64,000 nucleotides of DNA from a virus: the IMG/VR virus record IMGVR_UViG_3300023210_000011, positions 1-64,000 of that record; one strand, given 5' to 3'. Position 1 is the first letter of the stretch. Each line of letters begins with the position of its first letter. Positions 29,058-54,940 of the stretch are shown piece after piece. The translations under genes and the position numbers were made by a program. The notes below the pieces were generated by a model. That model searched no databases and was not told the origin of the DNA. It worked only from the letters and a program-made list of their open reading frames with translations.

Positions 29058-29460
29058 TGGTGGACCTGGTGGGAGTCGAACCCACGTCCGCAGCATCATT
29101 CCTCAGTCCGTTCGCTACATCCCCGTACTTGACCCAGCGGGGCGGGTGTCCCAGGTGGCTTCCCCTGGCTCCAGTTGTCCTTCACGCGAGGCTCTAAAGG
29201 CCTCGCCGCATTCCAGCCCGCTGAGCAACTTCCTCTCTCTTGAGCTTGCGAAGTCTCGTTTTACACCTGGTGAAGCTCGACCAGCTTCCTCACCAAGCAC
29301 CGGGGCTCACGGAGTCCCCGGACTTCTCTCACGCGGCCGCGGCCACGGGAGCGAAGTGGTTGTTGTTGTTGGCAATTGTCGTTTGCCTCACCGTTAGGCC
29401 GGTGAGCACGCCGCAGCGCGAACTTTCGTGCAGATACCCCGTCGAAACCGTTTCAGGCCC
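29058..29460 (-). ncRNA. ssrA: tmRNA (transfer-messenger RNA), tag (A)ANNNNHFAPVAAAA
   Basis: 5' GGGCCTGAAACGGTTTCGACGGGG; 3' GACGTGGGTTCGACTCCCACCAGGTCC-A-CCA; G3.U70 alanine identity; tag ORF 29373..29329. Confidence 0.93.
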
Positions 29461-36876: not shown

Positions 36877-39753
36877 ATGGACCACTTCTACCCGGAGTTC
36901 GAAAAGGAGGCGGACCTCGCCTCCTTCCTCGCCCCGGTAACGGAGAGAATCCAGGGCTTCTTCCAGTCCAAGGAGAAGAAGCGCGCGGCTCGCCGGGTGG
37001 AGGGGTTCCACAAGACGGAAGACAAGGACTGGGACGGGTTCACCGACCAGACTTCCCGCAAGAGCTTCGTCAAGCAGCTGGGGTCGGACACGCGCTCCGA
37101 TCCCAAGCTCCTGCAGTACGCCGACAACATGAACCGCCTCAAGACGGGCAAGCAGGTCGGAGAGGTCCAGGGAAGCCGGGGCACCTACAAGATCGTGAAG
37201 CTGCGGGGCCAGGATCGACTGGGGTGCTCCTGCAACGACTGGCGCTACAAGAAGTCCGTCGCGCAGCCTGGTGAGCAGGTGGACTGCAAGCACATCCGGC
37301 AGTTTCAGCAGCTGAAGGTTGCGGGTGTGAAGAAGCTCGAGCCCTCGCAGGGCGAGCGGGCTGAGTGGGAAAAGCGGGTAGCGCAGGCTGCGCTCTCGGG
37401 CGGGGACGGCGCCTCTCTGATGAAGACGGAAGAGGGCTTCGCAGCCTACACGCACCGCTCCCGTTCGAAGTTCTACCCAAGCCCCGCCTCCATTCCTCTT
37501 GGGAAGATCCGCTCCGTCGCGAAGACGGCGTCCTACCGCGAGGGCGGATCTTTCACGCACGACGGGCAGAAGTACTCTCTTGACGCCGCACTTCGATCCG
37601 CGGAGTCTCGCCCAGCCCTGCAGTTCTCGGTGGACGAGCTCAAGTGGGTGCTTCAGCATGACCGCCCCGACCCTTCGCGGGTACGAGCGGCAGACCTGCG
37701 TGCCCCTCTCTTGCTCGCACCCGACCGCAGGGGGCGGTGGACAGTCATTGATGGGCTGCACCGGCTCGCAAAGGCCGTGCGCGCAGGGAAAGACTCGGTC
37801 CCGGTCAAGATCTTGGCGCTGAGTGAGCTCCAGAAGACGGCCGCAGCAGTCACCTCCACGCTCAAGCCGCACCAGGAGCGGGTGCTGCGCAAGCTCGAGG
37901 ACAGCGACGGAGTCATCGTCGCGCACCGCGTAGGCGCCGGGAAGACGCTGACATCGATCGCCGCGGGCGTAGCGAGTGGCCGTCCCATGGAGGTCATCAC
38001 CCCTGCCTCCCTGACCAAGAACTACGAGAAGGAGCTCAAGAAGCACGTGAAGGGTGAGGTGAAGGCTCGTATCAGCTCCTACGAGAAGGCTGTACGGCGC
38101 GGAGCCAAAGAAGGGGAAGACAGCGTCGAGCCGGGATCTTTCCTGGTGCTCGACGAGGCGCACCGGCTGCGGAACGGAGGGACGCTAACCTCGAAGACCC
38201 TCCGTCCCGCGGCGCTGGAGGCCCACAAGCGGCTCCTCCTCACAGGCACCACGCTCTACAACCGCCCCTCTGATGTGGGGCCCCTGGCGAACGTGGCGGC
38301 GGGAGAGACAGTGCTCCCAGCGGACCCCACCAGGTTCGATCAGAAGTTCATCCAGGAGTCCGAGGTGTCCCCCGGGCTCTGGAACAGGCTGCGAGGGGTG
38401 AAGCCCGGTCTGCGGAAAGATCTGAAGAACGCCTCTCTTCTCCGCAAGGCGCTGTCAGGGCGCATTGATGTCCACTCAGAGGCATCGGCGGAGGACTTCC
38501 CTGAGCAGATCGAAGAGCGGATCGCAGTTCCGATGTCTCCGAAGCAGGAGCAGGTCTACGAGGCCGTGATGGGTGCCGCCCCGGCCCATGTGCGGAGGAA
38601 GATCCGCGCAGGGCTCCCGCCGTCGAAGCAGGAGTCCCGAATGTTGAACGCATTCACTACTGCAGGCCGGCAGGCTTCCCTCTCTCCGCGCCCCTATGTC
38701 GACGACATGACGAACGCGCAGGAGGCGGAGAACACCCCCAAGATCCAAGAGGCTGCGCGGCGGCTCCTGGACGCGCGGAAGACGGATCGAAGGTTCCGGG
38801 GGGTGGTGTACTCGAACTACATCGAGGCGGGCCTGAAGCCCTACGAGCGTGCCCTGAAGAGGCGGAAGATCAAGTTCAACACCCTCACGGGCAAGCTCAA
38901 CGCCAAGCAGAAAGCCCGCATGGTGGATGAGTACAACTCGGGGCAGACGCCCATCCTCCTCGTCTCGAGCTCGGGGACTGAGGGGCTGGACCTGAAGGGC
39001 ACGAAGATGGTCCAGGTCTTGGAGCCGCACTGGAACAACTCCAAGATCGACCAGGTGATTGGACGAGGAGTCCGGTACCAGAGCCACGCCCACCTCCCGA
39101 AGAAGGAGCGCAAGGTTCAGGTCCAGCGGTTCTACTCATCGCTGCCGAAGGGCTTCTTGGGCCGGAACAAGGGCAAGTCCACTGAGCAGTGGATCCAAGA
39201 TCGGGCGGACGACAAGACGCGCCTCTCCAACCAGCTGCGGGAAGTGTTCCAGCAGGCGAGTGACGAGCCCCCGCAGTCGCTACAGGGCCATGTGGCTCAG
39301 CGCATCCAGGAGCGCGCCCCCGGTTCCGGGTACGAGGTCGCCAAGATCCAGGCGCGCATCCCCAAGATGACGCTCCGCCCAGGAAAGACCTACCATGTGC
39401 CGCTCGCCAGAGGGCGGGGCTGGGTCGTGATAGGCGACATCGGTGGCCGGCACGTCGTGAAGACGGTCTTCGGTCCCAATATGCGGCCCCCGGGAGAGCG
39501 CGTGCTGGTCAAGCAGGCCCGCGCACCCCGCGACTACAAGAAGGAGTATGCGGAGTACCACGCCACCCCAGAGCAGCGGAAGAACCGTAGCCTCCGGAAC
39601 CAGGCCCGCCGGAAGGTGGGGCTAAGCAAAGGTGATCCCCGAGAGGTAGACCACAAGACTCCGCTCTCTCGTGGCGGCGGAAATGGCTCTGGGAACCTGC
39701 GTGCAGTTAGCTTCGAGCTCAACCGCAAAAAGTCAAACGGAGAAGCACGATGA
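36877..39753 (+). CDS. multidomain protein: SWIM zinc finger + ParB-like + SNF2-family helicase + HNH endonuclease
   Basis: CSCNDW...DCKH; VIDGLHR; AHRVGAGKT, LDEAH, LLTGT, GTEGLDL, QVIGRGVR; VDHKTPLSRGG...NL...N. Confidence 0.85.
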   Translation: MDHFYPEFEKEADLASFLAPVTERIQGFFQSKEKKRAARRVEGFHKTEDKDWDGFTDQTSRKSFVKQLGSDTRSDPKLLQYADNMNRLKTGKQVGEVQGSRGTYKIVKLRGQDRLGCSCNDWRYKKSVAQPGEQVDCKHIRQFQQLKVAGVKKLEPSQGERAEWEKRVAQAALSGGDGASLMKTEEGFAAYTHRSRSKFYPSPASIPLGKIRSVAKTASYREGGSFTHDGQKYSLDAALRSAESRPALQFSVDELKWVLQHDRPDPSRVRAADLRAPLLLAPDRRGRWTVIDGLHRLAKAVRAGKDSVPVKILALSELQKTAAAVTSTLKPHQERVLRKLEDSDGVIVAHRVGAGKTLTSIAAGVASGRPMEVITPASLTKNYEKELKKHVKGEVKARISSYEKAVRRGAKEGEDSVEPGSFLVLDEAHRLRNGGTLTSKTLRPAALEAHKRLLLTGTTLYNRPSDVGPLANVAAGETVLPADPTRFDQKFIQESEVSPGLWNRLRGVKPGLRKDLKNASLLRKALSGRIDVHSEASAEDFPEQIEERIAVPMSPKQEQVYEAVMGAAPAHVRRKIRAGLPPSKQESRMLNAFTTAGRQASLSPRPYVDDMTNAQEAENTPKIQEAARRLLDARKTDRRFRGVVYSNYIEAGLKPYERALKRRKIKFNTLTGKLNAKQKARMVDEYNSGQTPILLVSSSGTEGLDLKGTKMVQVLEPHWNNSKIDQVIGRGVRYQSHAHLPKKERKVQVQRFYSSLPKGFLGRNKGKSTEQWIQDRADDKTRLSNQLREVFQQASDEPPQSLQGHVAQRIQERAPGSGYEVAKIQARIPKMTLRPGKTYHVPLARGRGWVVIGDIGGRHVVKTVFGPNMRPPGERVLVKQARAPRDYKKEYAEYHATPEQRKNRSLRNQARRKVGLSKGDPREVDHKTPLSRGGGNGSGNLRAVSFELNRKKSNGEAR

Positions 39754-42599: not shown

Positions 42600-42764
42600 C
42601 TACCGCCCGCCCCAAGGGAGGAGAGTGCCTCCCCGGATCTCGCGTTCTACGCCGCACTCACAGCGGCACCACCAGGTCACTTGGCCGTTTTTCTTTCCGT
42701 GTCTTCGAAGTACAGACCACTTCCCATAGGCGTGCCCAGTTTCATCTTTCACTTTTGCTGCCAT
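42600..42764 (-). CDS. 54-aa remnant resembling the N-terminal CxC domain of AP2/HNH homing endonucleases
   Basis: translated by hand: DETGHAYGKWSVL...WWCRCECG...IRGGTL; GAGGAG RBS. Confidence 0.5.
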   Translation of the reverse strand: MAAKVKDETGHAYGKWSVLRRHGKKNGQVTWWCRCECGVEREIRGGTLLPWGGR

Positions 42765-44052
42765 AGGTCAGACTCTCCTCGATGCACTCTTCTGCCTCCT
42801 TGTCGTCGCGAAATCGAACGACCCGAGGGAACTGAAGTGCGTTGGTGGCCTCCCCGTCGGCGATGAAGGTCCGGCTGGCGAATTGAATCTCTGCGACCAC
42901 AGGGAACACGCCAGGAGTGCTGAGCCAGTTCCTGTGGTCCTGGGTGAGTCCTCCTCCGCAGTCGCACAAGTAGACCAGTTCTCCGTCGGCGTCGTATTGG
43001 TGGAGGGCTACGGACCCTACCTTTCCACGGTTCTTCCCGCGGCCGTACTTGCCGACGCCCTGTTCGGGGTCCCATAGGCAGACAGCATCCAGTTCGAAGA
43101 CGGGCTTCAGCTTGCAGCAGGTGTTCGGGCGGTCGGGCTTGCCGCGCAGGTTGAAGGACTTCTCGCCGTAGGTGGAGTGCGGGTCCACGATGACGAAGCC
43201 CTCCCACCCCTGAGCGACCAGGGTGTTGCGGAGTCCCTCGACCCCCTTGTAGTCGCCTTCGATGAAGGTCTCCGGCGGATGTACGAACTGGCCGGAGAAC
43301 AGGTCCGCGTGGTCCAGGCGGAACCGGTACTGCATCTCTCCGAGCAGCTGGAGCCCGGCAGCCCAGGCCACGTCCCAGCAGATGAAGTGCAGGAACCCGG
43401 TCTTCTCCTGGATCTCGAGGGCCTTCGGAGTCAACGACTTCATCACCTTCGCGACCCGCCATCGATCATCCGCGTCAGGCCCGTTCACGATCTCGCCCAA
43501 CAGGATGGTGTTGTTCGGGATCTCGTCGTTCTCCTCGATCTCCGTGGCGATGTGGTCGAAGCGCTCGCGCCAGGTGTGCTGATCTTCGAGGTGGTGATTC
43601 GTCAGCATCCGTCGGCTGAAGAAGATCGCCTCCCCCTCGGAGTTCTTGACGATGACCATCATCTCGCCATCGTACTTCCGCACCGCCCACGCCTTCCCGT
43701 CCTCGACCATCTTCTCCATCTTCTTGTTCAGCGAGTTCTGAGGCTTGTAGAAGGACAGGTTGTCCACGATGCCGTGCTCGAAGGGGCTGTAGTCAGCGGT
43801 CTCCTCCAGCTTCGTGTCGTAGCCCTTCCGCATCTTCTTCGAGATCAGGCGATCCATCATGTTCTGCGCGTCTTGCTCAGCCGAGACCTCGTTGCTGCGC
43901 CCCGCGTGCTTGGCGGTTCCGTAGTCCGTGACCTCCTGCATCTTCCCGTCGAGCTGGCCGAAGCGCGTGTGGACCGCGTTCCCCTCGACAGCGATTTCCC
44001 AGACCCGCACAGCGCCGGTGCGCGCACGGTTATAGAGTGTGGTGTAGTTCAT
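42742..44052 (-). CDS. lig: ATP-dependent DNA ligase with N-terminal WGR-like domain
   Basis: motif I RKYDGE, III LLGEI, IIIa CWDV, IV WEGFVI, V KLKP; N-terminal VHTRFGQLDG...KMRKGY. Confidence 0.88.
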   Translation of the reverse strand: MNYTTLYNRARTGAVRVWEIAVEGNAVHTRFGQLDGKMQEVTDYGTAKHAGRSNEVSAEQDAQNMMDRLISKKMRKGYDTKLEETADYSPFEHGIVDNLSFYKPQNSLNKKMEKMVEDGKAWAVRKYDGEMMVIVKNSEGEAIFFSRRMLTNHHLEDQHTWRERFDHIATEIEENDEIPNNTILLGEIVNGPDADDRWRVAKVMKSLTPKALEIQEKTGFLHFICWDVAWAAGLQLLGEMQYRFRLDHADLFSGQFVHPPETFIEGDYKGVEGLRNTLVAQGWEGFVIVDPHSTYGEKSFNLRGKPDRPNTCCKLKPVFELDAVCLWDPEQGVGKYGRGKNRGKVGSVALHQYDADGELVYLCDCGGGLTQDHRNWLSTPGVFPVVAEIQFASRTFIADGEATNALQFPRVVRFRDDKEAEECIEESLTYGSKSER

Positions 44053-44716: not shown

Positions 44717-47700
44717 ATGATTACCGCCCAGCAGGTGGCCCAGGGAATGGCCCTTCAGCAGCAGCAGCACTCGATGCTGACCGCTGGCGCGTCCGGAATG
44801 ATGCAGGCACAGCCTGCGATGGGCATGTCGCAGTACCCGCCGCAGTTCAGCTACGCGATGCCGAGCAACCCCAACCACGGTCGTGCGGCGCTGGGCAGTT
44901 CAATGGTGATGGGCGGCATGACGGGCGGCATCAACGCTGCCAGCTCCATCGCCAACCTCGCGGCGATCCCGGCGACTGCTGCGGGAATCGGCAGTTTGGG
45001 ATTCGCAGGGGCCAACTTCCTCGGACTGGGCGGCGGCGCTACCGCGGCCTCTCTCGGGGCCATGTCCGGAGGATTCATGACAGGGGCTGCCCTTCCCATG
45101 GCGGGCCTCGGCGTTGCTGCGGGCACGGCCTCGGCGATGAGATCTGGCATGCAGCAGACGCAGCAGGTCAACCAGCTCTTCGGCGGGATGCAGTTCGCCA
45201 ACATGGGCGGAGACCCTCGAACAGGTCGAGGATTCAGCCAGAACGACCTCGGGCAGATTCAGAGAGGAATCCGGGCTATCAACGCCAACAATCCCTTTGT
45301 GTCCATGTCGGATGCGCTCCGCTCATCCGAGCAGTTCACCGATATGGGGATGCACCAGGGGGTGCAGGACGCCGAGAAGATGGCGCGCAAGCTCACAGAG
45401 ATGGGCAAGACGATGCACCAGATGGCGCGGATCATGGGCACTTCCATGGAGGAGGCCGGCAAGGCGATGGGTTCGATGCGTTCTTCCGGGTTCTACTCGG
45501 CCTCCGATGTCATGGGGAACACGGCAGACATGAACTTGATGCGCGGCTACGGCATGACCTCAGACCGGTTCGCCGGCATGCAGGCTTCCGGGGCTGCCGC
45601 GACTCGAGGAGCACAGCTCTCCGGACGCGCAGGCGCCGGATTCGTCACGGGGGCTGCCCAGGACATCATGAGCGGCATCCGTACGGGCGCGCTGTCTGGT
45701 GAGCAGATCATGGACATCACAGGGGGCCGGGATCCCCTGGAAGCGGCACAGATGATGGCGCAGCAGTCCCTCGGGGCCACCATGCAGGGGCTCTCCGGTC
45801 CTGGAGGGACTGCGATGTTGGCCGCTATGGGGACCATGAAAGACGGGAAGTTCACGGGAGGGATCGACGCAGGGGTGATGCGTCAGATGGCCGAAGGGAA
45901 GCTGGGCCTCCGGGACCTGAGTGCCCGAGGCCAGAAGAAGGTCGGGTCAAGTCGGAGCTCGCAGGTGTCCTTTGTCGCGAACCAGAAGGACATCATGGAT
46001 ACTGCTCTCCAGAGTCCCGAGATGTCGGAGGCGCTGCTCAACGTCATCCGAACCGAGGCCCGTGAGATGGGGGACGAGAGCGAGGAGTACCTGCAGGTCC
46101 TGGCACAGACACAGTTCAACATGGATCGACGCCAGTTCCGCATCCTCTCTCGCATGGCTGAAGATCGGAAGAAGGGCCACCGTGAGCGCCTGTCGAGCCT
46201 GAAGCGCGAGGTGGACACTTCATCGCGCTCTGCCTACCTCCGTGAGAATCGCACCCTCGGTGGATTTGTCCAGAAGGCGACGGGCGGGGCCGCAGATCTG
46301 TGGCAGCAGGGCGCCGTTGACTTCTTCAGTGACGCCTCTCGGGACATTACCGAGGGGTTCCAGGAGGCCGAGCGTCGGATCTACGGGGACACGGAGGTTT
46401 CGGTCTCCAGATCTGCCATCCAGGACGTAATCATGGCGGGGAAGGGCAACTCCTCCGCGCTGTCGAAGGTGAGCCCCACGGTGGCTGCACGCCACGCGAT
46501 GTCCACGGGGAACATGGATGCGTTCACCGGGACGCTGGGGGTCTCGGATGAGCTCCTGGGCAGTGTAGACCTCGAGGGGGTCAACCAAGGAGCGCGGGCG
46601 GCGATGTCTGCCGAGCGTGGCGGAGTGGCGGCCCGTAAGCTGGGCCTCCCAAGCGGGCGGAGTGCCAAATTGGAAGCCCTGCGCGCCGAGGTGCGCGACC
46701 AGGTAAGGGGGAAGGGGTCAGTTGCAACCCCTGCCGAGATCGACGCCATCATCGCGAAGTCCGGGGCTGCCGGGGCGCGGTTGATTGCCCAGGACAAGTC
46801 CCAGACCCGGGTGTGGGAGGACGGATGGAACAAGGTCCCATCCTTCGGCGCCAGAGGCGGTGCCGCGGACAGTGTCATCGCCAGTCAGAAGAGCCTGGCG
46901 GCCGAGTCGGGCCTGGACGACCTCTCCAACGAGGCCGCTGGCGCCGCCGTGGCCTTCTTGGGCTCTCGTATGGTGGCAACCGGCGCCGTGCTGGCGGTGG
47001 TAGGAGGGCCGATGGGTTGGGCTGCGGGAGCAACGACCATCGCAGCTGGAGTGGCCGTTGGCGGCGTGGGGATACTCATGGGTTTGGGGGACTCAGACCT
47101 GGATGACATGCAGGAGGACTTCACCTCTGGCAAGGCGGGCACCGAGCTTGTTGCCGACTACGCGGACAAGGACAAGCAGGTCAAGATCGATGAGATCATC
47201 GCGGACGCCGCCGCGTCATCCAACACCCTGGCCGAGGGCCGAGAGAAGGCCGCCAAGAACCTCTCAAAGCTCTTGGGCCGTCCGGTGTCCGCGCGAGACG
47301 TGGAGATCGCGGACACGGTGATGCAGAAGCGCACCAACAAGAATGCGGCGGAGCGCAAGACCCTCACTTCCGCAGAGCGGGAGAAGATGGTCAAGGTCGC
47401 CAAAATGGGGAAGGCGCAGGTCGGCCTGGTCGCCACCAAGCGGGTAGCGGAGAGCCTCAAAGGTCTCGGGAACGAGATCGGAATGGCGGATGTGGATGAG
47501 ACTACGAGAGCTGCATTCCGGAAGGCCACCTCGGGGCTTGCCGGAGGGGATGGAGACGCCTTCGAGAACCTGGGCTCCGCCCTGCGTGCAGCTGCGGGAG
47601 GAGGATTTGAGGTCGGGGAGAATGCCTCGGGCACACGGCAGATCTTCGGGCTGGGCGTGGACGCCTACAACGAGCTGCAGGGGATGGGAGAAGACGGCCT

Positions 47701-48064
47701 CACCCTCGAAGAGATGGCCACGGTCACGAACTACAAGAAGGAGGATCTCGAGAAGATCCTCAAGAGGGTCGGGGTCTCGGCTACTGGTGGCGTAGTTAAG
47801 GGCCGCCGCGACATCGAGAAGGTCACTGGAGCCCTCTCCTCCCAGATGGTTGCAGGGGTACTCACGGAGGGGAAGGAGGGCATCCAGAGGGTCCTTGACT
47901 CTGGGAAGACACAGGAGCAGATCACAGCGGAGGCTGTGACTGCCATGACCACCGCGGTCAACCAGTCGGTCGAGATGACTGAAGCCCTCTACAAGACCGT
48001 GAGGAACGAGGGCCTTGACGTCCAGCTCGTAGATCCTGACAGCGCAGCTAAGGGGGAGAAGTAG
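44717..48064 (+). CDS. tape measure protein
   Basis: 1115 aa, Ala/Gly/Met/Ser-rich, helical with hydrophobic GxxxG stretches; precedes baseplate genes. Confidence 0.75.
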   Translation: MITAQQVAQGMALQQQQHSMLTAGASGMMQAQPAMGMSQYPPQFSYAMPSNPNHGRAALGSSMVMGGMTGGINAASSIANLAAIPATAAGIGSLGFAGANFLGLGGGATAASLGAMSGGFMTGAALPMAGLGVAAGTASAMRSGMQQTQQVNQLFGGMQFANMGGDPRTGRGFSQNDLGQIQRGIRAINANNPFVSMSDALRSSEQFTDMGMHQGVQDAEKMARKLTEMGKTMHQMARIMGTSMEEAGKAMGSMRSSGFYSASDVMGNTADMNLMRGYGMTSDRFAGMQASGAAATRGAQLSGRAGAGFVTGAAQDIMSGIRTGALSGEQIMDITGGRDPLEAAQMMAQQSLGATMQGLSGPGGTAMLAAMGTMKDGKFTGGIDAGVMRQMAEGKLGLRDLSARGQKKVGSSRSSQVSFVANQKDIMDTALQSPEMSEALLNVIRTEAREMGDESEEYLQVLAQTQFNMDRRQFRILSRMAEDRKKGHRERLSSLKREVDTSSRSAYLRENRTLGGFVQKATGGAADLWQQGAVDFFSDASRDITEGFQEAERRIYGDTEVSVSRSAIQDVIMAGKGNSSALSKVSPTVAARHAMSTGNMDAFTGTLGVSDELLGSVDLEGVNQGARAAMSAERGGVAARKLGLPSGRSAKLEALRAEVRDQVRGKGSVATPAEIDAIIAKSGAAGARLIAQDKSQTRVWEDGWNKVPSFGARGGAADSVIASQKSLAAESGLDDLSNEAAGAAVAFLGSRMVATGAVLAVVGGPMGWAAGATTIAAGVAVGGVGILMGLGDSDLDDMQEDFTSGKAGTELVADYADKDKQVKIDEIIADAAASSNTLAEGREKAAKNLSKLLGRPVSARDVEIADTVMQKRTNKNAAERKTLTSAEREKMVKVAKMGKAQVGLVATKRVAESLKGLGNEIGMADVDETTRAAFRKATSGLAGGDGDAFENLGSALRAAAGGGFEVGENASGTRQIFGLGVDAYNELQGMGEDGLTLEEMATVTNYKKEDLEKILKRVGVSATGGVVKGRRDIEKVTGALSSQMVAGVLTEGKEGIQRVLDSGKTQEQITAEAVTAMTTAVNQSVEMTEALYKTVRNEGLDVQLVDPDSAAKGEK

Positions 48065-48319
48065 ATGAGTGACGACACCCAGATCGCTTCCAGGATTTCC
48101 GACACCCGCCCGGAGTCTTCTTTCGCATACCGAGACGAGCGAGGGATCAACCGGGAGGTCCGCATCGTGGACTACCCGACCCCCGACGACATCGCTCGGC
48201 AGGGGATGATGCAGGCGGCAGGGGAGATCGCCCTGGGTACCGGATACTCTTCCACCATGGACTACGACATGGTGACGGAGATGATCCGTACTCGAGTCCC
48301 TGTGCGGAGGACCCGATGA
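48065..48319 (+). CDS. hypothetical protein
   Basis: ORF track; coupled. Confidence 0.6.
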   Translation: MSDDTQIASRISDTRPESSFAYRDERGINREVRIVDYPTPDDIARQGMMQAAGEIALGTGYSSTMDYDMVTEMIRTRVPVRRTR

Positions 48320-49989
48320 GCACACCTGCGATCTTCCAGGCTCCCCTCGCGGCGGACTTCGCGGGAAGGCAGGGTCTCCATGTCTACGACGCCACCGATA
48401 CCGCAACTGTGGCCATCGAAGGTGTGGCGAGTTCCAAATTCGTACGCCGGCCCATGCGAGGGATCGTCGTCAAGAAAGACACGTACGCCAGCATCACGGT
48501 CGTCACTGCTGGGGGCGCGGCAGGGCTGTCGCTGCGGAATAGCAGTCATCCCCCCGGCACTCCCCCGAACTACACGTCGAACTTCGTCCTGCAGTCCGTG
48601 ACAGAGACCCGGAACGAGAAGGCGCAGTTCGTCACCACCTTCGGGGCCACCTACGCGTTCTTCTTCGGGGAGCAGCCACGGATCATCAACTGCTCTGCGA
48701 TCCTGCCGAACACGGCGGACTTTGAGTGGAGCAAGGAGTGGTGGCTCAACTACGAAGAGCGGCTCCGTGGGACCTCCCTGGCGAGCACGAACACGAAGGT
48801 GCGACTCCAGTACGATGAGCAGGTGGTCACCGGCTACCTGACAAACTGCACCACCATCCAGACCTCCATGGAGCCCAACTCCCTGCAGGTCAACTTCTCC
48901 CTCTTCGTAGAGAGCATCACCCGAGGTGGAGGTTCGAGAGAGTCTGATGCGCGGGCGTACCGTCGCTCGGGAACCTCAGACTACCTGGGAGTCGGTGCCT
49001 TGGATGATGTCCAGGATACCGCGCTGCTGGCCGACAGCTCCACGGCGGCTGTCCGCAAGACGAACATCAAGCTGTCCCCTCTGTCCGCTGGTGCTCCCGG
49101 GGCGATGAGCAAGTTCCTCTCTGCTCTGAACGAGATCGACGCAGCGATGGACAACGGAGTCCGCAAGATCCGGAATGCCCTCTACGGGCGGAACTTGGTC
49201 GTGCCGGTCAGCTTCACTTCCAGTCGAGCGAGCCGTGCCATCTTCGCGTCGGGCTCGGCGTCGGAAGACCTGGCGGGCCTGGAGGTCACGAACTTCTTTG
49301 GCGCGTCTCTCCTGGCGTTCAGCGACGGCACACCCCGTCCGGGACAGAACTCCGTGACGCTTCGCACGAACACGGATGGGTTCCTGGCCCTGGATGCGGC
49401 GCGCAAGGTCCAGAACGACGCGGTCTTCAACTTCCAGAACTTCGACGAGTACGTCAACTACCCGACTGCGACCTATGTGTCTGAGATCGGAGACCAGGCG
49501 ATCCGGGAATCTGAGCTCCGTGAGCTCGGCAGTGAGGAGGCCTTCTACAGCAACCGCGGGATCGCGGCATTCCAGGCATTTGGAATCAACGTGGCACCCT
49601 TCCCGCAGGTCCCCGGGGTGCCTCTTGAGCGCCAGGACACCGACATGGTGGTGCAGACCGCCCTCGGCTACCGGAGTGCGGCTGCGGCCAAGCAGCGCAC
49701 CGGGGAGATCGTGAGGACGATCGCCCGTGCGGCATTCGGCGTCGCAGTGCTCGGCTACGGGTACAGCGTGGTGAACGCACGGCGCCGTCTGCAGGAGAGT
49801 GTGAACAACCCGAACTCCGGAGGGCTCTCCGCATCTCAGCGTCAGGAGCTCCAGGGCAAGATCGACCGTGCTCAGAGGACTGAGGAGCAGCGCCGCTTGG
49901 TCAGCGAGGCTGCGGCGGCAGACCTCCGGGGCGAGACCGGCACGGTCTACCCGGGGACCCTGGGTGCGGCCCTCTCGGTGGTGCTGTGA
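48316..49989 (+). CDS. tail tube initiator / baseplate-associated protein
   Basis: position after tape measure; LQSVTETRNEKAQFVTTFG..Y.FFFGEQPR beta-rich tube-like segment. Confidence 0.55.
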   Translation: MSTPAIFQAPLAADFAGRQGLHVYDATDTATVAIEGVASSKFVRRPMRGIVVKKDTYASITVVTAGGAAGLSLRNSSHPPGTPPNYTSNFVLQSVTETRNEKAQFVTTFGATYAFFFGEQPRIINCSAILPNTADFEWSKEWWLNYEERLRGTSLASTNTKVRLQYDEQVVTGYLTNCTTIQTSMEPNSLQVNFSLFVESITRGGGSRESDARAYRRSGTSDYLGVGALDDVQDTALLADSSTAAVRKTNIKLSPLSAGAPGAMSKFLSALNEIDAAMDNGVRKIRNALYGRNLVVPVSFTSSRASRAIFASGSASEDLAGLEVTNFFGASLLAFSDGTPRPGQNSVTLRTNTDGFLALDAARKVQNDAVFNFQNFDEYVNYPTATYVSEIGDQAIRESELRELGSEEAFYSNRGIAAFQAFGINVAPFPQVPGVPLERQDTDMVVQTALGYRSAAAAKQRTGEIVRTIARAAFGVAVLGYGYSVVNARRRLQESVNNPNSGGLSASQRQELQGKIDRAQRTEEQRRLVSEAAAADLRGETGTVYPGTLGAALSVVL

Positions 49990-52900
49990 GCTCCCCCGGG
50001 TTCCACCTGCATCTCCGGCTGTTCCTCGAGGGCCTCGAGGTCCCGGTGATTGGTGCGTCGGTCACCACGCAGATCGGCTCCGCGGCGACCGCGAACATCC
50101 AGGTGGTGCCGGACGACGCGCTACTCGAGCTGCTGCCCCGCACGGTGGTCCATCTCTTCGTACTGGACTCCATGGAGTTCGCAGCCAGTGGCCGGACTCA
50201 GAGAGCCGGGGACGACTTCTACAAGCTGCTCTTCTGTGGGGAAGTCTCTGGGGTCCAGTTCTCGAAGGCAGGGGCCGGTTCACGGTCGGCCTCGCTGAAC
50301 TGCATGGATTTCTCGAACGTCTGGGACACGAACTACGCGTTCTCCCTGAACTTCGGAGCCAGCAGCGGGGACGCCACGACCATCGAGAACCGCTCAGCGT
50401 TCTTGGCGATCTCTCAGCCGTCGTTCGACAACATCATCCAGACTCCCGCGACGCTCGTGCGGTTGATCTCTCAGCAGAGGCCGCAGGCAGCGGGCCAAGC
50501 AGGGGCGCAGTCTGTGCTCGGAGGGCTGTTCAGCGTCCTGGAGGCGCTCAGTGGCGTCCAGGGGGCCTTCATGGGCGCAGGGCCCTGGCCCACAGTCCAG
50601 GAGAGGCGCACACGCGTCCTGGACTCCATCGTGTCCGATTCTGGGGAGACCGCTGCGGCGCTCTACTCCGCTGCGACGTTCTCTGAGTGGCTGAAGGGCC
50701 GACAGGGGCAGGTGGGAGCAGTCAGCTCGTTCCGCGACACCATCAACATGATCCTCGGGTTCATCTTCTACGATTTCGTGCCGAATCCGGCACCGAAGTA
50801 CATCAGAGGAGAGGACGCGGAGAAGGAGCACCCTGGTCGGGATGTGCCCTATTCATCCAAGGGCGCCCTCCGAGAGAAGATCCTGTCGGAGTTCTCTGCC
50901 AAGGACGGTGTGGTCAGCGATCCGCGAAAGCTGATCAACCTCAACCTCGAGTTCTTGGAGAAGGTGGTCATCCTGCTGTCCGGCCTCAAGGAGCGGGTCG
51001 GAGACCCTCTGATCTACAAAGGGCCGGGATCTGCCCCTGGTGGAGAGGACACGGGGTACAAGTTCGATTTCCGGATCCACGACGGGTGGCGCGAAGATGA
51101 CGTCATCAGCACGGCGCACGAGCGTGGGTTCGCAATTGACATCGGGCATCCCCAGTTCTCCGGGAGGCTGTTCGCAGGAAGTATGCCCTTCAACCTCAAA
51201 GATGGGGTGGCCCAGCCGACTCTGCTGGAAGAGGCCGTTGGTGTGCAGGGGAAGTTCCGGCACGTCATGTACCAGTGGGAGGCGCTGGGAAAGGGTAAAC
51301 TGTCGAATCTCTGGGATCTGGAGATGGCCGCGCAGGACGAGGCATACCGGCGCCTCTGGGCATCTGGTCAGGAGATCTACGACGATATTCAGATGCTGAA
51401 GGCGCTTAGCGCCTGGGTGGACGTGGTCCTGGTAGAGACCGACAAAGATCCAGACCTCCAGTCGGGAGGGGACCCCCTCGATTGGCCCTTGACCCCAGAT
51501 CCGCTCTTCGCGCTGGTCGGCGTGGCCAACGATCCTGTTCATGTCCAGGACCGGCACCACAAGACCAAGTTCTCCGAAGCTGAGGGAACCCTCCAGGCGG
51601 GGGCGACCGGAAGGGGAGTCAGAGAGAGGCTCAACTCTTTCATCTTCCGGCCCAACATCTGGTTTGCGGCACCGCCGCGGTGCAATGTCATCTACCCAGA
51701 TCAGGTCACATCTTTCAGCATGCAGCGGGCCATGCTCCGAGAGACTACGCGACTGCAGCTCAACATCGCGTTCGACCAGATCAAGGAGAAGACGAAGCAG
51801 TTGGACCGTCTGGCGTTCGCCCCCAAGCTGGTGGGAGAGGAGCAGAACGTCCAGAAGGGGCTCGGGAGCGCAGACAAGGTGATCATCCACGATCACGAGG
51901 TCTACAGCGGCGTCATCCCGAAGTTCGAGCGAGCCTCGGACCTCCTCTACTACCGGCTGAAGGGAGTGGAAACGGGAAGCGGCACGGAGTCTGAGTCTCG
52001 GATCGACACTTTCGCAGACCGCCTCGCGCACTTCCACCTGCTCTCGAATCGGTACCTGTCGCGCAGTGCGTCTGTGGCCGGAGTGTTCAACCTGAACCTC
52101 GTCTGCGGGTTCCCTGGCGTCGTGGTTGGGGCCCCCCTGTCTGCCTACGAACTGCAGAAGACGGAGAAGGGAGCCCGCTCTGACAGAGTCCACTGGTTGG
52201 GGATGCTCTCGTCAGTCACGCACTCGATCACGCAGGGCGGCGCCCAGACAAACGTGTCGCTCACGCATGTCCGGTCGCACCGTACGGGTGATAGGACGGA
52301 CGATCTCTTCTCTGAGAACATCAATAGCAGCGGGCAGCTGACGATCCAGAGCCGCGCAGAGATTCTTCAGGGGCAGGGGATCTTCTCCGTGGAGTCCGGG
52401 ACCTCTATCGGGGTCTTGAACTCCACCCCCGAGTCGGTGCCTTCGCGCCTGGGGCTGCCGCTGGACGAAGATCCGAACTCCCTCTACTTCTGGGAGGCCC
52501 TCGGAGTCCTCATCGGAGACTTTCGGACGTACCTCAGAAACCTGCCGAAAATCTACGGGGATCGTGCGGGCTTCCTCATCGACCCGAGCACGTTCCCTCC
52601 CACTGACCTGACCGCGACAGGGGTGCAGGCCGGGCAGTCTGTAGCGATCCCAGAAGTTCCAGTGCCCGGGGGCAAGACCACCAAGGGCGTCATCTGGACG
52701 GGGCCGCCCACCACGGTGGCAATCCGTGCCCGGGGGTCCATGCCTCCAGGAGAGGAAGTTGTAGCGGTACTCGAGGTGGACTCTCCCTTTTCCATACAGA
52801 ATCAGACCGGCGGCACCATCACGCAGTTCGTGAAGGAGAAGAAGTCCGCTGCGTTCTGGGACTCTGAGGACGTCCACGGCGTCGTAGAATTCCTGGTCAC

Positions 52901-53648
52901 GCTGCCCGGAAGTACGCTGACGGTAGAGGAAGTTGACGCGGACGCGCGCCTTGGCTTGCCGGTGGAGGAGGCCATCCGTCCCTCTTGGATCTCGTCGGAC
53001 TACAGCACCGAGAAGGTAGAGACGGGCAACATCACCAAGATCTCAGAGCGGGTGTACCTGCCGTTCTTCGGCTCACCGTGTATCGTCGACCGGGTCTTGT
53101 CTGAGGATCCGCCGGAAGGCCTGGTTCGCCATTCTGTGGAGCAGGCCGTAGACCGCCTGGTGTGGGACTACTCCGAGGCTGTGGACAAGGGTTCCCGCTA
53201 CGTTCTCCAGTTCATCCATGGGTCTACCCACAGGAAGGTGGCCACTCTCCGCGAGGTGCTTGCGGACAAGACCCAGAAGCTCGGACCCGATGGGTGGGTC
53301 CATGAGCCTCGTGGGCCAGGTGGATTCAAGGACAGGAAGTACGCCCGGTACGGGGGATTCCACTCCAACGCTGTGAACTTCGGTCTTGTGGACTATGGAT
53401 CCGAGCTCGAGTTCCTCGACTTGGAGGGTCCGCTACGTTCCCGATATGGGTCGGGGCGGGAAGATCTGTCCAAGCAGATCACCAACGAGCTCGATCCCCG
53501 GGCTGAGCGTGCCCGCCGGGTAATCCGGTACCGGGGCCAGGTCCGGGCAGCGACATCGCTGACCAAGCGGCCCCGAGTGTCCTTGAGCCCCGATGGCGAG
53601 GATGCTACGATCCAAAATACTCCCCTCGGCATCGCCAAAAGAGGCTGA
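49986..53648 (+). CDS. baseplate hub protein (gp27/gp44-like) with inserted M15-like peptidase segment
   Basis: N-terminal LRLFLEGLEVPVIGASV...ATANIQV; internal DGWR...AHERGFAIDI. Confidence 0.6.
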   Translation: MSSPGFHLHLRLFLEGLEVPVIGASVTTQIGSAATANIQVVPDDALLELLPRTVVHLFVLDSMEFAASGRTQRAGDDFYKLLFCGEVSGVQFSKAGAGSRSASLNCMDFSNVWDTNYAFSLNFGASSGDATTIENRSAFLAISQPSFDNIIQTPATLVRLISQQRPQAAGQAGAQSVLGGLFSVLEALSGVQGAFMGAGPWPTVQERRTRVLDSIVSDSGETAAALYSAATFSEWLKGRQGQVGAVSSFRDTINMILGFIFYDFVPNPAPKYIRGEDAEKEHPGRDVPYSSKGALREKILSEFSAKDGVVSDPRKLINLNLEFLEKVVILLSGLKERVGDPLIYKGPGSAPGGEDTGYKFDFRIHDGWREDDVISTAHERGFAIDIGHPQFSGRLFAGSMPFNLKDGVAQPTLLEEAVGVQGKFRHVMYQWEALGKGKLSNLWDLEMAAQDEAYRRLWASGQEIYDDIQMLKALSAWVDVVLVETDKDPDLQSGGDPLDWPLTPDPLFALVGVANDPVHVQDRHHKTKFSEAEGTLQAGATGRGVRERLNSFIFRPNIWFAAPPRCNVIYPDQVTSFSMQRAMLRETTRLQLNIAFDQIKEKTKQLDRLAFAPKLVGEEQNVQKGLGSADKVIIHDHEVYSGVIPKFERASDLLYYRLKGVETGSGTESESRIDTFADRLAHFHLLSNRYLSRSASVAGVFNLNLVCGFPGVVVGAPLSAYELQKTEKGARSDRVHWLGMLSSVTHSITQGGAQTNVSLTHVRSHRTGDRTDDLFSENINSSGQLTIQSRAEILQGQGIFSVESGTSIGVLNSTPESVPSRLGLPLDEDPNSLYFWEALGVLIGDFRTYLRNLPKIYGDRAGFLIDPSTFPPTDLTATGVQAGQSVAIPEVPVPGGKTTKGVIWTGPPTTVAIRARGSMPPGEEVVAVLEVDSPFSIQNQTGGTITQFVKEKKSAAFWDSEDVHGVVEFLVTLPGSTLTVEEVDADARLGLPVEEAIRPSWISSDYSTEKVETGNITKISERVYLPFFGSPCIVDRVLSEDPPEGLVRHSVEQAVDRLVWDYSEAVDKGSRYVLQFIHGSTHRKVATLREVLADKTQKLGPDGWVHEPRGPGGFKDRKYARYGGFHSNAVNFGLVDYGSELEFLDLEGPLRSRYGSGREDLSKQITNELDPRAERARRVIRYRGQVRAATSLTKRPRVSLSPDGEDATIQNTPLGIAKRG

Positions 53649-53650
53649 TC

Positions 53651-53893
53651 ATGATCGACCCGAACATCTCTGCGTTCTTCTTCGACGAGCTCACGAAGGA
53701 GGCCCTGAGTGGCAAACACCTCGGCGGAGCAGCTCTCGTCGGCGGCGGCGTCATCGCCGGTGCCGTGGGCAAGGATGCTCTCCAGGACCGCAAGGAGGGT
53801 CGCGTCATCCGCGCGCAGCGCGAGATGCAGCAGCGTCAGATGATGCAGGCCATGAAGCGTCGGAAGTCGGGCGCCTCCCAGGGGGGCTACTGA
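53651..53893 (+). CDS. small protein with FFFDELTKEA leader and glycine zipper
   Basis: ORF track; leader resembles that of 9434..10012. Confidence 0.7.
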   Translation: MIDPNISAFFFDELTKEALSGKHLGGAALVGGGVIAGAVGKDALQDRKEGRVIRAQREMQQRQMMQAMKRRKSGASQGGY

Positions 53894-54135
53894 TGGCCAA
53901 CGACCTCTTCCAGCGAGACCATCACCTGTCTCACGCCGCAGAGATGTCGAACGTGGCCAACACGAACGAGATCTTGGATGATCTCTTCACCCGACGTGAC
54001 GATCTGGCCGCCCGGTCCTACCGGCAGCTCTCGGGCCTGTTCTCCGGCAAGGAGCACTACGGGCGCAACACCCGCTTGGGCATGTCTGCTCGCGAGGCCG
54101 GTCGCCTGGTGAACCGGGCATTCTCGGATGGCTGA
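53893..54135 (+). CDS. hypothetical protein
   Basis: 3' part of ORF 53593..54135; TGATG coupling. Confidence 0.6.
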   Translation: MANDLFQRDHHLSHAAEMSNVANTNEILDDLFTRRDDLAARSYRQLSGLFSGKEHYGRNTRLGMSAREAGRLVNRAFSDG

Positions 54136-54940
54136 CCTCCGGAGCCGACTCGAGAAGATCGCGGCAAAGGACCCGTACCAGTTCCCGACTTCTTGGACGT
54201 CCGGGCAGCCGATGTCGTCTCGGGCCGCTCAAGATCTGGACCTGTGGCGGCAGTGGAAGACCTCCAAGGAAGACCCAGAGAAGCTGGCTCCGCTCCTCAC
54301 GTCGCTCAATCCAGTCATCTCTTCGCAGGTGAACCGGCACCGGGCCCCGAGGATCTACAAGCCTGCGATCGAGGCCCACGCGCGCACCCTGGCAGTCCAG
54401 GCACTCCGTCGGTATGACCCGACCCGGAAGGCTGCGGTCGCATCGCACGTCCAGAACAACCTCAAGGGTCTCAACCGCTACGTGAAGAAGCATCAGAACT
54501 TCACGCGGATCGTAGAGGCACAGGCCAACAAGATCGGGCCGTACTCGCGGGCCAAGGCTGTGCTCGAGGAGGAGCTGGGCAGGGAGCCCACCACCTTCGA
54601 GCTCGCAGACAAGCTCAAGATGAGCCCGAAGAAGGTCGAGCGCCTGGCGAAAGAGATCCGGCCGGACATCTTCAACCTGCCGGCAGTCGGAGAAGATGCG
54701 TTCGAGTCCTCCCCCTTCGAGGAGGAGTCCCCCAGGCACCGCGAGGTCATCGCGATGCTGCCCTACGAGCTCACAACCGACGAGACAGCAGTGTTCAACT
54801 ACCTCTTCGGTAAGGGAGGGAAGCGCAAGATGGAGGTGATGAACGACATCGCGCGTGAACTCGGGTGGTCTGCGTCCAAGGTCTCCCAGGTCAAGAACTC
54901 GATCTCGAAGAAGTACCGCGACTACCTGAGAAGCTTCTGA
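54128..54940 (+). CDS. sigma-70 family RNA polymerase sigma factor (FliA/WhiG-like)
   Basis: region 2 ALRRYDPTRKAAVASHV; region 3 LEEELGREPTTFELADKLKMSPKKV; region 4 HTH MNDIARELGWSASKVSQVK. Confidence 0.85.
   Translation: MADLRSRLEKIAAKDPYQFPTSWTSGQPMSSRAAQDLDLWRQWKTSKEDPEKLAPLLTSLNPVISSQVNRHRAPRIYKPAIEAHARTLAVQALRRYDPTRKAAVASHVQNNLKGLNRYVKKHQNFTRIVEAQANKIGPYSRAKAVLEEELGREPTTFELADKLKMSPKKVERLAKEIRPDIFNLPAVGEDAFESSPFEEESPRHREVIAMLPYELTTDETAVFNYLFGKGGKRKMEVMNDIARELGWSASKVSQVKNSISKKYRDYLRSF

Follow-up and report, generated by a model that had tools for sequence, protein, structure and literature searches.

The gene at positions 36877-39753 (+) of the IMG/VR virus record IMGVR_UViG_3300023210_000011 is one intact open reading frame (ORF), which codes for P0001, a modular, polyvalent-type chain of 958 amino acids (aa). 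Positions 1 to 64,000 of this record, a stretch of 64,000 nt that we refer to as the window, form part of a 131-kb contig with a GC content of about 63%, which belongs to a large uncultured marine phage. We propose, and consider it rather probable, that P0001 is a capsid-loaded polyvalent polyprotein, which is cut by the prohead protease of the phage at K-x-A tripeptides. An initial annotation of the sequence had read these tripeptides as signs of proteolytic processing into separate injected enzymes. This reading is supported by the linkers in which the tripeptides lie, the shuffling of modules at these sites, the occurrence of the same motif in head proteins and the fold of a candidate protease, from which we infer cleavage, packaging and injection.

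K-x-A tripeptides at the module junctions of P0001

The following modules and junctions can be distinguished in P0001:

36877-36912 (+): leader, aa 1-12 (MDHFYPEFEKEA), ends in K10-E-A12; disordered in the model
36913-37323 (+): M1, aa 13-149, helical region and putative SWIM-type CxC...CxH finger, ends in K147-V-A149
37324-37530 (+): M2, aa 150-218, mostly low-confidence spacer, ends in K216-T-A218
37531-37842 (+): putative ParB/Srx-like module, aa 219-322, IDGLHR motif, ends in K320-T-A322
37843-39276 (+): SNF2-family helicase module, aa 323-800, contains K517-N-A-S in a folded region
39268-39285 (+): degenerate SNF2/M5 junction, aa 798-803, QSLQGH; E-K-x-A-G-H in relatives
39277-39519 (+): M5, aa 801-881, a 76-aa unit, ends in K879-Q-A881
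39520-39753 (+): HNH-type nuclease module, aa 882-958, starts with RAPRDY; stop codon included

All five K-x-A tripeptides cited in the initial annotation are present, at 36904-36912, 37315-37323, 37522-37530, 37834-37842 and 39511-39519. The statement that K-x-A stands at the domain junctions is correct for these five sites, but not for the SNF2/M5 junction at around aa 800, which is degenerate, and M5 had been overlooked. An AlphaFold model of P0001 (mean predicted local distance difference test, pLDDT, 76.7) shows separate domains, with the junction tripeptides in or beside low-confidence linkers, as had been anticipated. The low-confidence stretches comprise aa 1-18, 151-157, 173-246, 315-320, 801-805 and 879-885, the linker at aa 801-805 persisting at the degenerate SNF2/M5 junction. 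Four of the seven K-x-A sites (K10, K216, K320 and K879) are located strictly inside stretches with a pLDDT below 50, and K147 marks the end of a helix two residues ahead of such a stretch. The two sites that are not at junctions, K35 and K517, lie within folded domains. A conserved E-K-K-R-A sequence at aa 33-37 of M1 sits within a predicted helix, and K517-N-A-S (38425-38433) is absent from the SNF2 module in 60 homologs with at least 37% identity. For the placement of the P0001 sites in or near low-pLDDT stretches, a binomial estimate gave P values of about 0.003-0.03.

Exchange of modules at K-x-A joints across the family

We found 106 homologs of P0001, which vary greatly in length and in their extra domains. 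The BLAST alignments of these homologs with P0001 break at aa 146, 208-216, 318-325, 799-804 and 875-885, that is, at the K-x-A sites and at the additional junction around aa 800. In an all-against-all comparison of 35 family members, 46% of 220 breakpoint clusters were located no more than 3 aa from a K-x-A, compared with 5% for random positions. The signal in the P0001 family is the position of K-x-A and not its frequency. The segments between the sites have constant lengths (76, 76, 104/105, 134 and 113/114 aa), and 75 segment clusters could be distinguished across 54 relatives. As the initial annotation had suggested might be seen, modules are permuted, inserted and deleted at K-x-A, which itself is retained irrespective of the modules on either side. 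The architectures range from SWIM-M5-HNH (298 aa) to long chains, and in one protein the HNH module comes first. Extra modules in the relatives, namely GNAT, NUDIX, P-loop kinase, papain-like C92/NlpC and glycine-zipper modules, are likewise bracketed by K-x-A. Homologous fusions without K-x-A at their junctions were looked for and not found.

The individual modules behave as units within this mosaic. The SWIM module is N-terminal in nearly all proteins that have one, and the leader of the homologs, like that of P0001, ends in K-E-A-(G/D) at aa 10-13. The ParB/Srx-like module forms a unit of 104-105 aa and M5 nearly always accompanies the HNH module, whereas the M2 spacer is found in P0001 only and not in the relatives compared. 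It is extremely improbable that the coincidence of K-x-A with domain borders merely reflects chance in a Lys- and Ala-rich protein. P0001 does carry no more K-x-A than expected, and the placement of the sites within P0001 alone is moderately significant; against this stand the breakpoint clusters and the constant inter-site lengths of the family, and the replication of the pattern in relatives and in Salmonella phage Arash, which is described below.

At the joints, neither Lys nor Ala varies. The residue between them tracks the upstream module (K-T-A after SWIM, K-E-A after ParB and K-V/L-A after M5), and the residue following Ala tracks the downstream module (RAPRDY for HNH, GHVEDRIA for M5 and (A/S)YEEGGSF for ParB). 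Module identity thus switches directly after Ala, which is the sole basis on which we place the presumed cut at this position. The Lys and Ala codons vary at the joints, and selection therefore acts on the peptide and not on a DNA recombination signal. An origin of K-x-A as a recombination scar was rejected, as both the codons and the middle residue vary.

The SNF2/M5 joint has been lost in P0001 and is kept in all relatives compared, where it reads E-K-x-A-G-H; SNF2 and M5 would therefore remain joined in P0001. In a relative from Tara Oceans (L003:769-5704), the gene consists of two ORFs with an 8-nt overlap and is broken before the SNF2 module. One ORF stops just past K-E-A, the other begins at the SNF2 module. 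A true split of the gene would account for this, as would a frameshift or an error in sequencing. Two further proteins likewise begin at the SNF2 module.

A second type of leader precedes the same SWIM module in P0109, P0110, P0112 and P0114-P0116. Instead of the F-x-K-E-A leader, these proteins have a hydrophobic N-terminus that resembles a glycine zipper (for example MRIPGPKSILGAGGLTLGIGG).

The joint motif in head-region proteins

The extended motif [LFMIVY]-x-K-x-A-[SAG] occurs 28 times in the products of 22 plus-strand head-region genes (96-131 kb of the contig), which were taken from a crude GC3-based gene call, compared with 3.1 occurrences expected, an enrichment of about nine-fold. 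The corresponding counts are 2 vs 3.6 expected for minus-strand genes, 1 vs 2.2 for tail genes and 0 vs 1.1 for the RNA polymerase. K+1 is the sole K-A spacing that is raised in head-region proteins, and half of these proteins have a K-x-A within their first 40 aa, compared with 7 of 60 minus-strand proteins. The N-terminus of the capsid protein reads ...TKTAAAS at aa 23. The same head genes are rich in K-x-A in related contigs with 62-76% identity.

A scarcity of K-x-A was observed within the SNF2 module. Among 61 homologs with at least 37% identity, 35 K-x-A were found inside the SNF2 modules, compared with 196 expected, whereas the ratios of observed to expected for the other K-A spacings were between 0.71 and 1.15; for R-x-A and E-x-A, the ratios were 0.76 and 1.08, respectively. 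The spacing control singles out K+1. In more distant SNF2 homologs, the K-x-A ratio was 0.66. K-x-A-[SAG] was completely absent (0 vs 42 expected). We consider the depletion only suggestive because the sequences are related, and relatedness alone depletes several residue pairs equally.

A candidate prohead protease

The candidate protease is a 645-aa protein encoded at positions 124403-126340 of the genome (L002:11403-13340), upstream of K-x-A-rich scaffold-like genes. By profile, it gave only a weak match to a PHROG head maturation protease, and sequence searches of Pfam and PDB with this protein were empty. A structural model of aa 1-304 (pLDDT 87) was aligned by VIA-align to gp21 of phage T4 with a Z score of 9.2 (root-mean-square deviation 2.9, 133 aa aligned), followed by the herpesvirus proteases of varicella-zoster virus (Z 7.9) and human cytomegalovirus (Z 6.1) and another herpesvirus protease (Z 4.6); the next rows had Z scores of 4.4 or less. 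The top Foldseek rows were all assemblins and gp21, with E values of about 0.01-0.04. These matches identify a T4 gp21/assemblin fold, which only the search by structure revealed. Homologs in Gordonia phage Stormageddon and phage G are annotated as maturation proteases, and 2,457 relatives of the N-terminal domain were found among representatives clustered at 50% identity. The C-terminal extensions of the family are very variable and reach about 1,500 aa; the 645-aa protein also has a conserved C-terminal region. His138 does not vary among the homologs, and at least 90% of them have Ser194, which we take to fit the His/Ser centre of the gp21/assemblin fold.

The catalytic domain lies between K-T-A-S (aa 37) and K-T-A-G (aa 294). 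Of 43 homologs (34-82% identity), at least 90% retain K37-x-A39, with further K-x-A after the domain. Such flanking is the pattern that would be expected of self-processing. As the motif is found on scaffold-like proteins, at the capsid N-terminus and at both ends of the protease domain, it points to the head protease as the enzyme that would recognize it.

The SNF2 module and head proteins of Salmonella phage Arash

In the cultured relative Arash, Gp217 shares 39% identity with the SNF2 module (E 8e-100). Gp217 is a stand-alone helicase of 472 aa, without the SWIM, ParB, M5 and HNH modules and without a leader. It was detected in Arash virion preparations at 100% coverage (1,148 spectra), and purified particles also yielded RNA polymerase subunits and a sigma factor; the paper mentions neither a protease nor cleavage (PMC10585845). 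The detection of Gp217 by mass spectrometry and the location of the P0001 gene on the late strand by structural genes are indirect signs of a possible association of P0001 with the virion. In the head-gene region of Arash (OQ632216.1 132806-161423, L020), we counted 10 K-x-A in gp220 (3.0 expected), 8 in gp223 (3.0 expected) and 7 in gp225 (1.8 expected). The capsid protein gp226 has a K-x-A at aa 27, and gp222, published as a 'structural protein', is the homolog of the candidate protease and has a K-x-A at aa 30. With regard to its role in the host, the SNF2 module might be directed against the defences of the host. A role in support of a packaged RNA polymerase is also conceivable, as gp217 adjoins the RNA polymerase gene gp216 in Arash and the module also matches NPH-I of vaccinia virus.

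Two further proteins of the window with K-x-A leaders were observed. A sigma-70-like factor (54128-54940, +; Sigma70_r3, E 2e-11) has a leader whose last residues, L-E-K-I-A-A, conform to the head motif, and given the sigma factor in the Arash virion proteome, it may be loaded into the capsid. An 80-aa protein (53651-53893, +) has the leader FFFDELTKEA followed by a glycine-rich stretch and is a candidate for leader-bearing cargo.

The Arash data also bear on which protease would cut the joints. We think it quite improbable that they are cut by a host protease or another phage protease in the cytoplasm, or only after injection, in which case the products would not necessarily be virion cargo. 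Processing by embedded peptidases before or after delivery has been proposed for polyvalent proteins (Iyer et al., 2017; PMC5512222), some relatives of P0001 contain papain-like C92/NlpC modules, and the split products P0016-18, like Arash Gp217, are leaderless. However, P0001 has no peptidase domain (no peptidase family was matched in a Pfam search with E values up to 0.1), the motif is shared by the scaffold-like proteins, the capsid N-terminus and the ends of the protease domain, and virion preparations of Arash were reported to contain the helicase.

Proposed processing of P0001

If P0001 is indeed a substrate of the head protease, the leader and the SWIM module would carry a string of cargo consisting of the ParB/Srx-like, SNF2, M5 and HNH modules. 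Each joint, a hydrophobic residue followed by x-K-x-A and a small residue, would be a recognition signal for the phage's own gp21/assemblin-fold protease. P0001 is probably co-assembled into the prohead together with the scaffold-like proteins, which bear many copies of this signal. In the next step, the chain would probably be cut, most likely after Ala, and would enter the host together with the DNA. The expected fragments are the leader peptide, the SWIM module, the 69-aa spacer, a 104-aa ParB-like fragment, a 559-aa SNF2+M5 fragment and a 77-aa HNH fragment. Because the joint is universal, modules could be swapped between phages with loading and release undisturbed.

It is also conceivable, and we consider it unlikely, that P0001 is a single uncut multi-domain enzyme, whose modules cooperate on one DNA substrate and in which K-x-A serves as a linker or helix-cap element. 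SWIM-SNF2 and nuclease-helicase fusions are known from domain surveys. The evidence for cleavage is indirect, K-x-A occurs at chance frequency in P0001, and the SNF2/M5 site was lost without decay of the gene. A passive linker would, however, not hold Lys and Ala invariant as the flanking modules change, nor would it account for the roughly nine-fold enrichment of the motif in head-region proteins only, its presence around the protease domain across a family with 34-82% identity or the depletion in the SNF2 domain at the K+1 spacing only. In addition, the gene of one relative is split at a joint and the Arash helicase stands alone.

Several observations weigh against cleavage of P0001 by the head protease. 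Seven K-x-A are found in P0001, compared with 7.5 expected. The full head consensus is matched by only two of the five junction sites; two joints have the hydrophobic residue at position -1 instead of -2, and at the HNH joint, Ala is followed by Arg. The group of head genes and the extended pattern were chosen after the counts were known, and in an all-pairs control of the SNF2 modules, K-x-A was the third most depleted among 264 residue pairs. The match of the candidate protease to the T4 gp21/assemblin fold is moderate and its activity is predicted; its gene is located about 85 kb from the P0001 gene. With regard to packaging, the Arash list comprises 116 virion proteins, of which, according to the authors, abundant ones may be carry-over (PMC10585845). 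The leader is not obviously needed for loading, because Gp217 and the split products P0016-18 are leaderless. For P0001 and its relatives, both cleavage and packaging are inferred from indirect evidence. We nevertheless favour processing by the head protease, and more generally, one might speculate that a large clade of tailed phages, which includes Arash and comprises over 2,400 protease representatives at 50% clustering, uses a gp21-fold protease with a new, assemblin-like specificity (P3 Lys, P1 Ala and a small P1' residue), the site of which serves as a universal joint for swappable, capsid-loaded and injected enzymes. This would amount to a polyprotein strategy of double-stranded DNA phages. 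For this broader proposal, we see the chances as evenly balanced.

Assignment of the modules

The SNF2 and Helicase_C assignment is secure. The SNF2-rel_dom family (PF00176) was matched with 67 bits (cut-off 24.9) and Helicase_C (PF00271) with 53.6 bits (cut-off 23.5), PDB sequence matches include Rad54-like proteins, NPH-I (vaccinia) and ISWI, and the whole central part of P0001 matches phrog_62, a 'DNA helicase' profile of 1881 positions. The HNH region matches phrog_4590 and phrog_1035 (endonuclease VII, E 1.5e-5), and its C-terminal part is of low confidence in the model. No Pfam match was obtained over this region in P0001 itself; the same module in the relative P0081 matches PF01844 and PF13395 with E values of 0.002-0.004, and the Atlas structure rows for the module point to viral HNH clusters. 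With modest confidence, aa 219-322 can be described as ParB/Srx-like. This region matches phrog_17560 and, weakly, SbnI (E 0.004) and ParB (E 0.087) in a phmmer search against PDB; its pLDDT is 44-69 and no Pfam ParB match was found. The SWIM label is based on a conserved C-S-C...C-K-H pattern and the predicted strand-strand-strand-helix secondary structure (E92-99, E102-108, E115-117 and H138-150) only, and searches of Pfam and PDB sequences gave no match for this region. The SWIM and ParB labels are therefore used here as weakly supported, tentative names. Family and fold searches with M5 returned no match.

Gene and genome setting

The P0001 gene starts only 4 nt past the upstream gene, and its N-terminus is common to the relatives. 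It lies on the same (late) strand as the structural genes, and a tail/baseplate block is located downstream. The gene order is kept in relatives and comprises a 214-aa gene, the P0001 gene, several small genes, a minus-strand ligase gene and a 1114-aa gene. The ligase is an ATP-dependent DNA ligase (42742-44052, -; phrog_114, E 5e-27), which is found at the same position in relatives. The large late ORFs at 44717-48064, 48316-49989 and 49986-53648 (all +; 1115, 557 and 1220 aa, respectively) have conserved synteny and no Pfam or PHROG match. Almost no matches were obtained in Pfam and PHROGs searches with the neighbours and the large downstream ORFs, and no paralogs of any P0001 module were found elsewhere in the genome. 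The contig also codes for a large terminase (phrog_675, E 1e-58), baseplate proteins and a capsid protein, whose gene is truncated by the contig end. A phage-encoded tmRNA gene is present at 29058-29460 (-), with the tag peptide ANNNNHFAPVAAAA. A reading of the region as a prophage beside a host tmRNA gene was rejected, as the entire 131-kb contig is phage.

Comparison with known systems

If our proposal holds true, it would provide a concrete mechanism for the processing of polyvalent phage proteins, namely via the head protease of the phage itself. It would make clear how enzymes of disparate kinds travel as one product and yet act apart, and why modules are freely exchanged. It would also reveal that prohead proteases can have a further specificity, for K-x-A in place of x-x-E. 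This new specificity can be read from sequence and would allow both the cargo of virions and the ends of mature proteins to be predicted for thousands of uncultured phages. The idea can be tested in Arash, whose head proteins carry the same motif. We found no published K-x-A prohead-protease motif in a literature search, which did not cover all journals.

Polyvalent proteins were described by Iyer, Burroughs, Anand, de Souza and Aravind (2017), according to whose proposal an embedded zincin-like metallopeptidase processes them (PMC5512222). Like the P0001 family, these proteins combine disparate effector domains in one chain (SWI2/SNF2, ParB-like, nucleases, GNAT, NUDIX, kinases and peptidases), their homologs show extreme mosaicism and their genes have a late or virion context. 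P0001, with its disparate domains in a phage protein and its mosaic homologs, fits this class. Delivery coupled to DNA and subsequent processing into units were also proposed for polyvalent proteins, as we do here for P0001. In contrast, Iyer et al. described no inter-domain cleavage signal, and P0001 differs from the 2017 set in that it has no embedded peptidase, a domain that is common among polyvalent proteins but not required of them, and in that the K-x-A signal of its joints also occurs in the head proteins and in the prohead protease.

The anti-restriction proteins DarB and DdrB of phage P1 are a further example of large helicase/methylase and ParB-like proteins that are packaged into the head, and DdrB is proteolytically processed (PMC5512222). 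The Dar system lacks a junction motif that recurs along the chain, and its proteins are loaded by another pathway. A further parallel is Arash, with Gp217 as homolog of the SNF2 module, Gp222 as homolog of the protease and head proteins crowded with K-x-A.

A protease with the same fold as that predicted here is found in phage T4 (gp21, with the substrates IPI-III and Alt), phiKZ (gp175) and SPN3US (gp245) (PMC10052503). As in the phage described here, these systems have a short motif of the P3-x-P1 type, with many copies in scaffold proteins or propeptides, N-terminal leaders and ejected enzyme cargo. The motifs known from these systems have Glu as their last residue (L/I-x-E for T4, A-x-E for SPN3US; PMC10052503), whereas the motif here is K-x-A followed by a small residue. 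In most known substrates, it is an N-terminal propeptide that is removed; in the family described here, the motif stands between independent, swappable modules, of which one chain can have up to six or more.

With respect to the presumed cleavage site, the motif recalls the herpesvirus assemblins, and these proteases are structurally related to the candidate protease. Their maturation and release sites consist of (V/L/I)-x-A followed by Ser, and in both cases the presumed scissile bond would join Ala to Ser or another small residue. The phage motif differs in the invariant Lys two residues before Ala, and host and virion type differ as well.

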